NCBI RefSeq assembly: GCF_011045215.1
Contig: NZ_CP049201.1
Length of the DNA stretch: 64,000 nt
From: Escherichia coli
GTDB taxonomy: Bacteria > Pseudomonadota > Gammaproteobacteria > Enterobacterales > Enterobacteriaceae
Strand: one strand, 5' to 3'
Made by a program: the position numbers and the translations under genes
Shown: piece after piece, positions 13,041 through 15,555 of the stretch
How the letters are laid out: every line of letters begins with the position of its first letter
How positions within the stretch are numbered: position 1 is the stretch's first letter
Notes under the pieces: generated by a model
What the model saw: only the letters and a program-made list of their open reading frames with translations
Databases searched by the model: none
What the model was told of the DNA's origin: nothing

Positions 13041-13940
13041 TTACGCAGAGAAAAAGGCGATGAGGATCGGCACTAACAGGCTAAGAATAAAACCGTGAAC
13101 AATTGCCGCCGGGACCATATCCAGCCCGCCAGTACGTTGAAGAACGGGCAGGGTGAAATCCATTGATGTGGCACCGCATAAGCCCAGTGCAGTAGAGCGG
13201 CTGCGGCGAATCAGCCCAGGGATCAACATAATAGCAATCAGTTCACGGGCCAGATCATTAAAAAACGCCGCGCTCCCGATTACCGGGCCAAAAGATTCGG
13301 TCAATAAAATACCGGAAAGAGAATACCAGCCGAAACCGGAGGCCATTGCCAGCGCGGTATTGATGGGGAGATCAAGAATAAAGGCGTTAATTAAACCACC
13401 AATTAATGAACTGGCAACCACCACCACGGCGACAATCATTCCCCGGCGATTAAGGACAATCTGCTTTAAGGTCATGCCATTATTGCGCAACTGAATACCG
13501 ACGAGGAAAAGTAGCAGAATTAACGTGTATTCGCTGGCTTCGGTCGCGTGTTGTAAGAAAGCCAGTCCACTCAGACCAATGGCAAAACCAATCACTACTA
13601 CGCCGCACAGTTTTAGCGACTCCAGCGCCATCGCAATACGCGACGGGAGTTTTTCTTGCTGATGGTGATTGCGCCATGGCAGGCCTCGCTCCAGCCACAT
13701 CAGGGCGGCAATATTACATAGTAAAATAACGGTAATACTGACAGCAGAATAATGCAGAATCGCCAACAGGTTACTGGCGAGGTTATCGAGAAACGCCAGA
13801 CTGATACCCATAAAAAAGAGAATAAGGTAAACCATCCAGCTTAATAGCTGATTAATAACTTTTAACGCAGCTTTTTGGCGAAGCGGAATGAGGTAACCCA
13901 CAATCAGGGGAACCAGAATGATTAACAGCCCAGAAAACAT
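13041..13940 (-). CDS. lysO: Lysine exporter LysO (YbjE)
   Basis: Polytopic membrane protein; internal start MFSGLLIILVPL (299 aa). Confidence 0.8.
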   Translation of the reverse strand: MFSGLLIILVPLIVGYLIPLRQKAALKVINQLLSWMVYLILFFMGISLAFLDNLASNLLAILHYSAVSITVILLCNIAALMWLERGLPWRNHHQQEKLPSRIAMALESLKLCGVVVIGFAIGLSGLAFLQHATEASEYTLILLLFLVGIQLRNNGMTLKQIVLNRRGMIVAVVVVASSLIGGLINAFILDLPINTALAMASGFGWYSLSGILLTESFGPVIGSAAFFNDLARELIAIMLIPGLIRRSRSTALGLCGATSMDFTLPVLQRTGGLDMVPAAIVHGFILSLLVPILIAFFSA

Positions 13941-14129
13941 GAAAACCCAGTCCTTGCAAAGATGAAGTCGAAATGCGCGATGACACACTACTGAAAGCGG
14001 AAGGACGAGTAAAGTTGCAATTAAAAGGAAATGTTATGCATAAGGAGCAGTAGAGTATTCGTTTTCATTTAAAGATATTCTTGCGCTTTAATTACAAACT
14101 GCACCGATGTTGGTGGCGTCAAAATCGCC

Positions 14130-14340
14130 GAGGCGTTCCCTGAAGGCCGGGGCAGCCCACATGGATGTGGGCTGAGGGCGCGTTTTACAGGGATGTTACC
14201 TCGCGCCCGATCCGGTAGCCGTAAGGGATAAGTCGAGGGCACCGCGCAGCGGCGATTTTGTTCGCCAGAGCCCGGGGGTGCAGGGGGCGGCGGCGATTGG
14301 CCGCCCCCTGCGCGCTCCTTGCGCCAGTGGCAATATGTGG
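14130..14340. repeat. GC-rich palindromic intergenic repeat block (REP-like)
   Basis: Stem-forming palindromes seen directly, e.g. gcagggggcggcggcgattggccgccccctgc and gcccacatggatgtgggc, in the lysO-aqpZ intergenic region. Confidence 0.4.
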
Positions 14341-14395
14341 CTTAGCTCATGAAAGGAGCGCAACAAGATGATGAATCAACATATAACAACATCTT

Positions 14396-14422
14396 AAAAA
14401 AAGGCCTGACATTACGCCAGGC
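14396..14422 (-). terminator. Rho-independent terminator downstream of aqpZ
   Basis: Hairpin ggcctgacattacgccaggcc followed on the minus strand by a T-run. Confidence 0.7.
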
Positions 14423-14434
14423 CTTCTGCGTTAA

Positions 14435-15130
14435 TTAATTACGTTTTTCCAGCAGAGTCCGGTAAATCAGACCACCGATAATGCCGCCGACAATTGGCAC
14501 CACCCAGAAGAACCACAGTTGTTCTAATGCCCAGCCGCCCTGGAAGATAGCAACCGCGGTGCTGCGCGCCGGGTTAACAGAAGTGTTAGTCACCGGAATA
14601 CTGATTAAGTGAATCAGGGTTAAGGCCAGACCAATAGCGATCGGCGCAAAACCTGCCGGAGCGAATTTGTCGGTTGCACCGTGGATCACTAACAGGAAGC
14701 CCGCACTCAATACCAGTTCAACTACCAGCGCGGAAAGCATGGAATAACCGCCTGGTGAATGCTCGCCATAACCGTTAGAAGCAAAACCGCTGGCTGCCGC
14801 GTCAAAACCCGTTTTACCACTGGCAATTAAATACAGCAGCGCTGCCGCAACAATACCGCCGACAACCTGGGCAATTACGTAGCCAACGACTTCTTTTGCC
14901 GGAAAACGTCCGCCAGCCCATAAACCAATAGTGACCGCCGGGTTAAAATGACCACCAGAAATATGACCAACAGCAAAGGCCATCGTCAGAACGGTCAGAC
15001 CGAACGCCAACGCCACGCCGGCAAAACCAATGCCTAATTCCGGGAAGCCTGCGGCCAGAACAGCACTACCACAGCCACCAAAAACAAGCCAGAAAGTACC
15101 AAAACATTCAGCTGCTAATTTTCTGAACAT
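14435..15130 (-). CDS. aqpZ: Aquaporin Z
   Basis: MIP-family channel with two NPA-type motifs ([16 protein letters not shown]); 231 aa from the internal Met. Confidence 0.9.
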
Positions 15131-15555
15131 ATCCACCTCAATTAAAAATTGACCCTGTGAAAAATATGGTCGTTTTATAGGGTCGTCGTAAAAAAGTGAC
15201 GACGGAAATAATGCGCGGCTATTTTAAAAACGAAGGCGAGTCATTCACCAGATAAATAAATCCAGTAAATTTGATTTAGGGCAACAGCGGGTTGCCCCAT
15301 ATAGTCATTTGTCTGATTGACAGTGTAGTGCAAGCAAAAGATTTAATCCTTTAGGCGTAATAAAAAATAATTTATCATGCTAATTATTTGATTTTGTTGT
15401 TTTTGCAGACTTATCAGCAAGAGGGAGTATAACGCGATTATTCGCTCATTTTTCAGACATTTGCCATGCTTAAATGTGATGTCATCACGTATTAGCAAGG
15501 CCTTTCCCGTTATACTGCCAGCGTAAAGGATAAGTCACATATTTCTGGAGGGGAT

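Follow-up and report, generated by a model that had tools for sequence, protein, structure and literature searches.

The GC-rich palindromic region between lysO and aqpZ of Escherichia coli is the TRIP1a repeat, also known as RRS-lysO, with a core resembling the TwoAYGGAY motif

TRIP1 repeats were named by Rudd (1999) and have been re-analysed by Li et al. (2024) (PMC10888264). In E. coli MG1655, TRIP1a is placed 31 bp beyond the aqpZ terminator, on its downstream side, TRIP1b at 1080855-1081000 after putP, where it is 'missing an internal 125 bp', and TRIP1c at 2229122-2229394 after yohI/dusC (PMC10888264). Replication Risk Sequences (RRS) have been described by the Cox and Goodman groups (Pham et al. 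2023, PMC10287960; Pham et al. 2024, PMC11194060; preprint of 2026, bioRxiv 10.64898/2026.06.16.732529). By ssGap-seq, peaks of RecA and SSB about 2 kb long are found on the lagging-strand template from each RRS (PMC10287960, PMC11194060); these peaks vanish when the RRS is deleted and appear where one is inserted ectopically, and the G-rich RRS strand blocks Pol I, II and IV in vitro (PMC10287960, PMC11194060, bioRxiv 10.64898/2026.06.16.732529). An inverted RRS gives no peak in vivo, while in single-molecule assays the complementary strand still gives gaps in about 66% of encounters (PMC10287960, PMC11194060, bioRxiv 10.64898/2026.06.16.732529). Deletion of both RRS is not tolerated without a compensating 200-kb amplification (PMC11194060) and alters supercoiling (PMC10287960, PMC11194060, bioRxiv 10.64898/2026.06.16.732529). 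Deletion of RRS-lysO alone has no measurable effect on growth (PMC11194060).

The region between lysO and aqpZ in the window analysed here, a stretch of 64,000 nucleotides from E. coli contig NZ_CP049201.1, is the already published TRIP1a repeat and hence RRS-lysO, the lysO 'replication risk sequence'. With window positions obtained by subtracting 900917 from the MG1655 coordinate, the TRIP1a unit of Li et al. 2024 (MG1655 915016-915281; PMC10888264) occupies 14099-14364 on the + strand, and the 222-bp RRS-lysO, 168-389 bp upstream of the lysO start, occupies 14108-14329 (+) (PMC11194060). Alignment of 14000-14439 to NC_000913.3 914917-915356 gives 99.5% identity (2 mismatches in 440 bp), and strain 14EC001 matches 14100-14345 at 100%. 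The genes around the repeat follow the order hcp, lysO, aqpZ, ybjD in the layout of MG1655, with lysO at 13041-13940 (-; ATG at 13940) and aqpZ at 14435-15136 (-). The intrinsic terminator of aqpZ (14394-14425, -), a stem at 14401-14408/14418-14425 followed by seven T, falls outside the repeat, and the mapping to MG1655, the distance to lysO and the distance to the aqpZ terminator all agree with TRIP1a. Since the published TRIP1a and RRS-lysO coordinates and the published G-quadruplex (G4) motif fall exactly on this region, the element is a known and experimentally studied one; no difference in identity was found in coordinates, sequence, G4 motif, paralogues or variation in copy number and direction, and the GC content of 62-65% is likewise shared. 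The RefSeq annotation of MG1655 leaves the lysO-aqpZ spacer entirely free of features, and no ncRNA is annotated by PGAP at the element in any of 5,426 E. coli genomes. The original prediction had outlined about 200 bp at 14130-14340, and the element it singled out is real, but the repeat is larger, at about 14099-14364, and homology between copies reaches 14073-14375.

The GC content is 0.655 in 14100-14299 and 0.595 in 14200-14399, compared with 0.385-0.53 in the flanks, and the + strand is G-rich (GC skew +0.21). Perfect inverted repeats are present at 14153-14162/14165-14174 (10/10), 14280-14291/14300-14311 (12/12) and 14312-14320/14353-14361 (9/9), together with a long-range pair at 14120-14135/14245-14260 (14/16). 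As RNA, the + strand of 14100-14345 folds at -133.9 kcal/mol (z -4.9), a value that none of 200 shuffled sequences matched, and the - strand at -116.5 kcal/mol (z -4.2); as ssDNA, the two strands of the 222-bp core reach -71 and -69 kcal/mol (z -6.5 and -6.7). The dense GC-rich palindromes reported by the original prediction are thus borne out by the base composition, by several perfect or near-perfect inverted repeats and by folding scores far below those of shuffled sequences; as RNA and as ssDNA alike, the element is structured rather than unstructured.

An intergenic, GC-rich and palindromic sequence flanked by the aqpZ terminator and the lysO promoter region might also be read as a REP/BIME-type element, or as a regulatory or terminator part of lysO or aqpZ, but we regard either as extremely improbable. 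REP elements have the consensus core GCCKGATGCGRCG within a palindromic unit of about 35 bp and are present in hundreds of copies. In a search with this core, 0 matches at up to two mismatches were found in or near the region, in agreement with the first impression that the palindromes do not fit REP, and with the low copy number (a median of 3 places per genome, and 2-3 copies, not hundreds) we rejected a REP/BIME identity. REP/BIME, ERIC/IRU and Box C elements share with TRIP1 an intergenic position in 3' spacers, palindromes and high GC content, but the TRIP1 sequence is distinct, with a unit of about 270 bp as opposed to about 35 bp and 2-10 copies as opposed to hundreds. The suggestion of a different intergenic repeat family was therefore correct, the family being TRIP1, which is low-copy and distinct from REP/BIME, with paralogues at yohP-dusC and putP. 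As for a part in the expression of the neighbouring genes, the aqpZ terminator is a separate hairpin (14401-14425), the element also adjoins unrelated genes, nothing is annotated between lysO and aqpZ in the MG1655 RefSeq record, and deletion of RRS-lysO causes no measurable growth defect (PMC11194060). The literature on RSA/Box C/IRU and on an sRNA at yohP-dusC yielded nothing useful.

Within the repeat, an imperfect direct repeat, GAAGGCCGGGG / CAGAGCCCGGGGG, with a spacing of 125 nt marks the borders of an internal module of 125 bp (14147-14271, +). The module contains two GGA hairpins and most of a domain resembling the TwoAYGGAY motif of Rfam (RF01731), and in the allele alignment it is absent from TRIP1b and from a short lysO allele. 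The TwoAYGGAY-like domain is closed by a P1 stem with its 5' arm at 14120-14135 (+) and its 3' arm at 14245-14260 (+), both identified as an inverted repeat and the latter also in the fold and the consensus fold. Hairpin 1 (14153-14174, +) is a perfect 10-bp palindrome with the loop motif ACATGGATGT at 14159-14168, is invariant in nine out of nine enterobacterial copies and aligns to the first AYGGAY hairpin of RF01731, while hairpin 2 (14176-14208, +) has the lower stem GGGCGCG/CGCGCCC and the apical motif TACAGGGATGT at 14186-14196. The published G-quadruplex motif GGGGGTGCAGGGGGCGGCGG (motif from PMC11194060) has a single exact match in the window, at 14274-14293 (+). It is overlapped by an inverted repeat forming a perfect 12-bp GC hairpin, GCAGGGGGCGGC / GCCGCCCCCTGC, at 14280-14311, and a terminal stem-loop, GCGCTCCTT ... 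AAGGAGCGC, identified as an inverted repeat with arms kept in all copies, lies at 14312-14361. In the alignment of TRIP1 inner modules four base pairs show compensatory changes, and one-sided stem changes on the G-rich strand turn C-G into U-G in 8 cells as against 1 C.A, such C-G to U-G changes being seen in the P1 5' arm (consensus fold, + strand). In the yohP-dusC copy of ST131, paired substitutions of GGCGGC/GCCGCC to GGAGGA/TCCTCC keep the 12-bp hairpin, a retention that a pure G4 model would not require.

At the right end of the repeat, 14353-14358 forms a strong Shine-Dalgarno-like AAGGAG followed by an ATG open reading frame of nine codons (MMNQHITTS, about 14369-14398). This frame is unconserved in the paralogues, and AAGGAGCGC is the 3' arm of the conserved stem; it is probably not coding.

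TRIP1a/RRS-lysO is one of two near-identical, oppositely oriented copies of a GC-rich repeat which flank the terminus region about 650 kb either side of dif. In the mechanism published for RRS, fork unwinding would expose the G-rich strand, here the + strand of the window, as lagging-strand template; folding of this strand into a G-quadruplex and hairpins would block the lagging-strand polymerase, and restart downstream would leave a gap of up to about 2 kb occupied by SSB and RecA. Such gaps may, as the RRS authors propose, serve as topological relief valves. That the region is TRIP1a/RRS-lysO acting by this DNA-level gap mechanism is in our judgement very likely. The identity of the element, its folding potential, the strand carrying the G4 motif, the paralogues and the variation across genomes were obtained in this analysis, while gap formation, polymerase block and conditional essentiality are all taken from the literature (PMC10287960, PMC11194060); we infer the topological role, and a contribution of the hairpins alongside the G4.

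Several of our observations bear on this mechanism. The exact G4 motif lies on the strand published as lagging-strand template, and the GC skew of the + strand over the whole window is +0.054, marking it as the G-rich strand, as expected for the lagging-strand template on this replichore, with the replichore assignment and that of the + strand as lagging-strand template taken from the RRS paper (PMC11194060). The dusC copy (TRIP1c/RRS-dusC) is near-identical and oppositely oriented. We considered whether the hairpins alone cause the strand asymmetry and rejected this, because the folding energies of the two strands as ssDNA are near-equal (-71 vs -69 kcal/mol) and so fail to explain it; near-equal folding is compatible with a contribution from the G4, which lies outside the folding model. 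Conversely, the natural inversions and deletions described below (O157:H7, ST131 and about 26% of genomes non-K-12 at lysO) weaken a strict requirement for orientation and sequence. The published RRS model does not address the role of the 125-bp inner module.

Using blastn, a 246-bp query was found in 5,425 of 5,426 complete E. coli genomes, at a median of 3 and up to 10 places, giving a copy number per genome of about 1-10; the middle and right parts of the element, queried separately, were each multi-copy, and 5,404 of the 5,426 genomes have at least one place covering at least 80% of the inner-module query 14150-14272. The genome-wide search and strain comparison that had been suggested for the motif thus show that it is not unique to the locus, and reveal paralogues, orientation variants and deletion variants among these genomes. 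The K-12 paralogue at yohP-dusC, the site also of the best match in B2 and O157 strains, is inverted (L007:3116-3387, minus strand) and 93.75% identical over 272 bp, and alignment shows the short paralogue after putP to be without the 125-bp module. In E. albertii copies are located at yegH-asmA and upstream of lysO, in an Escherichia-like MAG downstream of copA, and in Pseudocitrobacter at mdlB-glnK.

At lysO-aqpZ itself the K-12 arrangement is present at 80% coverage or more in 4,026 of the 5,426 genomes, and about 26% differ. The ST131 allele is without 14132-14206, with the loss of both GGA hairpins and retention of the G4 arm, a type represented by six sampled records at 92% coverage, of which one (L132) was inspected, plus L003. 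The 75-bp deletion of this type sits at a CCGA microhomology (L132:442-855, L003). The O157:H7 allele has a full-length copy in the opposite orientation with 90.6% identity and unrelated edges, and the K-12-type aqpZ terminator is missing; a third class presents the O157:H7-type inverted arrangement minus the 125-bp module. Inversion of the whole spacer was rejected: outside the central ~272 bp, which the two arrangements have in common as an inverted match, the edges are unrelated. At yohP-dusC the copies of K-12, STEC367 and CREC-591 lie one way and those of ST131 and O157 the other, and homology of the flanks ends at the stop codons. In the sampled O157:H7 strains TRIP1a and TRIP1c are both inverted relative to their flanking genes when compared with K-12 (L131, L010, L006). 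Reverse direction has been reported for 1255/4703 TRIP1a and 2789/5741 TRIP1c repeats (Li et al. 2024, PMC10888264). TRIP1b and the short lysO allele have identical junctions in the short form, which from its sequence would fit either repeated events of deletion or conversion between copies or an empty ancestral form, and no empty lysO-aqpZ site was found among the sampled alleles. In E. coli MS 21-1 (H169) the match is confined to the aqpZ half of the query, which is what a TRIP1 rearrangement like those described by Li et al. (PMC10888264) would be expected to give. In two assemblies the whole hcr-ybjX segment lies within a record labelled plasmid (L002, L003); a plasmid-borne or mobile copy was rejected, the matches being the chromosomal lysO-aqpZ locus in plasmid-labelled records.

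This variability invites the interpretation that TRIP1 is a decaying selfish or neutral, MITE-like dispersed repeat which is tolerated in 3' spacers, its effect on replication being a by-product of GC-rich palindromes. Such a repeat would account for a copy number of 1-10 per genome, for copies mainly in convergent-gene spacers (yohP-dusC, yegH-asmA, downstream of copA and of putP), for both orientations at one locus with unrelated edge sequences, and for the frequency of deletions at microhomologies. A short imperfect terminal inverted repeat (14075-14087/14357-14369) is weak at 11/13, and among the matches listed the wider family discussed below is multi-copy in many genera. Neither a target-site duplication nor an associated transposase was seen, however, at least one copy with an intact inner module is kept in nearly every E. 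coli genome, the stems are maintained by compensatory changes, and the double deletion is not tolerated without the compensating amplification (PMC11194060). On this evidence we think a merely tolerated repeat unlikely, and continue with TRIP1a as a gap-forming RRS.

In a search of 601 bp, TwoAYGGAY (RF01731) was the only Rfam family to match the region (28.1 bits, E 0.032), with the full model aligned over 14119-14258 (+). Other TRIP1 copies gave 28.4, 29.8, 30.2 and 36.9 bits, again as full-length model alignments; none of the copies (28.1-36.9 bits) reaches the gathering score of 43 bits. TRIP1 shares with TwoAYGGAY a P1 stem enclosing two adjacent hairpins one A apart with GGA-centred loops, and long P1 stems and several copies per genome in Gammaproteobacteria, as in Weinberg et al. 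2010; here the P1 stem at 14120-14135/14245-14260 has 11 pairs in the consensus fold. Loop 1 is AUGGAU and fits AYGGAY, while loop 2 is AGGGAU (K-12) or AAGGAC (ST131), with a purine at the Y of the motif. Besides this purine and scores of 28-37 bits, below 43, TRIP1 differs by the addition of a third helix, UCCCU/AGGGA, and of a G-rich hairpin/G4 arm, which the wider family lacks. The part of the Weinberg et al. TwoAYGGAY alignment that was available to us contains no Escherichia accession.

Detection is reciprocal. A covariance model (R1) built solely from nine enterobacterial TRIP1 inner modules finds accepted TwoAYGGAY members: a second unit in Pseudocitrobacter (L114:2184-2331; 36.5 bits, E ~3.5e-6; 49.2 bits with Rfam TwoAYGGAY), sites in Salinicola (39-53 bits, L073 52.7; Rfam 44.8 bits) and a Lachnospiraceae site (L058; 25.6 bits; Rfam 72.6 bits). 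Because L073 and L058 were retrieved with a TRIP1-derived pattern and the L114 unit is off-pattern, only L114:2184-2331 is fully independent. At mdlB-glnK of Pseudocitrobacter faecalis (L114:1868-2331) a TRIP1-type copy (1868-2135, -) stands head-to-head with this canonical TwoAYGGAY unit (2184-2331, +), which ends in a G-rich hairpin, GGGGGGCGCGGTTGCCCCCC. As the G-rich arm is confined to enterobacterial copies, TRIP1/RRS looks from its sequence like a composite, with a TwoAYGGAY-like core inside a G-rich hairpin/G4 arm. We lean slightly towards homology of the TRIP1/RRS core with TwoAYGGAY. The larger proposal, that the 125-bp core is a diverged member of TwoAYGGAY with a broader functional consequence, in that members may be DNA-level elements of the RRS kind or CsrA-binding transcripts, is rather doubtful. 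TwoAYGGAY, Rfam and CsrA are unmentioned in the TRIP1/RRS papers PMC10888264, PMC10287960, PMC11194060 and bioRxiv 10.64898/2026.06.16.732529; the link is a new, modest lead concerning an element that is itself already known.

A scan of 100,044 species genomes with a pattern made from the two loops and their spacing gave at least 120 loci. Chance matches to the two-loop pattern would number roughly 25-40. Among the matches listed nearly all are in Gammaproteobacteria, and a single genome often has many copies, whose P1 stems are long and differ from copy to copy; most of the non-enterobacterial loci were picked with the TRIP1-derived pattern, and only off-pattern matches count as independent. 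At least 8-13 two-hairpin copies per genome are present in the Gammaproteobacteria MAG SB0675_bin_1 (L081-L093) and Pseudomonas saliphila (L059-L063), with a long near-perfect enclosing stem that varies in sequence between copies through compensatory changes, and in P. saliphila some of the copies are arranged in tandem, repeating every 336 or 365 nt. The loop pattern also matches 51-nt tandem GGA-hairpin arrays in Thalassotalea and Alteromonadaceae (L070, L071, L069, L106) and loci in Acinetobacter (L064-L068, L075-L077, L097, L103-L104) with three GGA hairpins and a U run after the last; judged by this layout, both look like CsrB/Rsm-type sponge sRNAs and not TRIP1-like repeats. In Nitrincola schmidtii (L120) a two-hairpin copy (~240-340) is preceded on the same strand, at a distance of about 150 nt, by the 3' end of a group II intron (54-126, Rfam 48.1 bits).

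Among the matches listed, a G-tract is not enriched beside non-enterobacterial copies (5/107 vs 15 on the other strand), and proxies for the replication strand divide almost evenly (flank GC skew 51 vs 54, ORF direction 59 vs 46), agreeing with each other in only 57 of 105 loci. Gene orientation was counted with crude ORF calling on non-independent copies. With this proviso, for the 128 copies (L011-L130) among the matches listed, 57 of 80 genes lying 3' of the GGA strand are convergent with it (p ~2e-4), and genes on its 5' side have no orientation bias (37 vs 37). Also among the matches listed, there is no preference of the UTR type for a position downstream of a co-oriented gene (37 vs 37), 5'-UTR positions are avoided, and in tandem gene contexts there is an antisense tendency.

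The likeness to TwoAYGGAY raises the alternative that the 125-bp module, or the whole element, works as + strand RNA that adopts a TwoAYGGAY-type fold and binds one CsrA dimer through its two hairpin loops, either as a small CsrA sponge or as a CsrA-responsive UTR element; such a role could coexist with a DNA-level effect. It is in keeping with TwoAYGGAY being the only Rfam family to match the TRIP1 copies, by full-length alignments at 28.1-36.9 bits, and with the recovery of canonical sites by the TRIP1-only R1 model, including the off-pattern L114:2184-2331, and TwoAYGGAY has itself been proposed as a CsrA sponge by RMfam (PMC4333381). On the + strand, the loops ACAUGGAUGU (14159-14168) and UACAGGGAUGU (14186-14196) agree with ruACArGGAugu, the high-affinity CsrA consensus given in PMC5694010, and have GGA in the hairpin loop, a likeness to the CsrB/CsrC/Rsm sRNAs; the starts of the two sites are separated by 28 nt. 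Among the matches listed, 89 of 117 copies from various taxa have a GGA strand that folds better than the complementary one, and the G.U-type substitutions favour the GGA strand; since G.T wobbles also stabilize ssDNA, this strand bias cannot separate RNA from DNA. The Rfam scores, however, are all below the gathering score of 43, and loop 2, AGGGAU/AAGGAC, is not AYGGAY. In contrast to the CsrB/CsrC/Rsm sRNAs, TRIP1 has two sites only, its orientation is variable and no CLIP-seq signal is assigned to its neighbouring genes; a consensus search of 13900-14500 found no promoter-like or terminator-like site. The GGA strand at lysO-aqpZ is antisense to both neighbouring genes, the orientation of the element relative to its neighbours flips between strains, both hairpins are deleted at lysO-aqpZ in ST131, and PGAP has no ncRNA here in 5,426 genomes. 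The gene-based table of Potts et al. 2017, which may omit intergenic antisense RNA, lists neither a CLIP-seq peak nor any other CsrA flag for dusC or ybjE. In the same work (Supplementary Data 2) ybjX, which lies beyond ybjD and adjoins macA, is a CsrA CLIP-seq and co-purification target activated by CsrA, a finding unrelated to the repeat. The activity demonstrated by experiment is one of the DNA (PMC10287960, PMC11194060). Taken together these observations make a CsrA-binding RNA quite unlikely, and a DNA-level gap-forming RRS is the reading we retain.

Very few bacterial sequences have been shown to programme gaps in replication; the RRS is among them and, as already published, is conditionally essential. 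The composite organization proposed here, a widespread two-hairpin core with an enterobacterial G-rich arm, suggests which part to mutate in separating hairpin from G4 effects. The sampled O157:H7 and ST131 strains provide natural analogues of the engineered inverted and partly deleted RRS strains, and their alleles temper the claim that RRS sequence and position are highly conserved. To the question raised by the RRS authors of whether widespread functional analogues exist, the TwoAYGGAY-type copies in Shewanella, Pseudomonas, Salinicola, Stenotrophomonas and others offer candidates. If the core is indeed TwoAYGGAY, an orphan motif which is multi-copy in many Gammaproteobacteria and gut Clostridia, then TwoAYGGAY elements may be misfiled DNA-level replication obstacles; alternatively, the RRS would also yield CsrA-binding transcripts, linking chromosome replication and topology to the Csr system.
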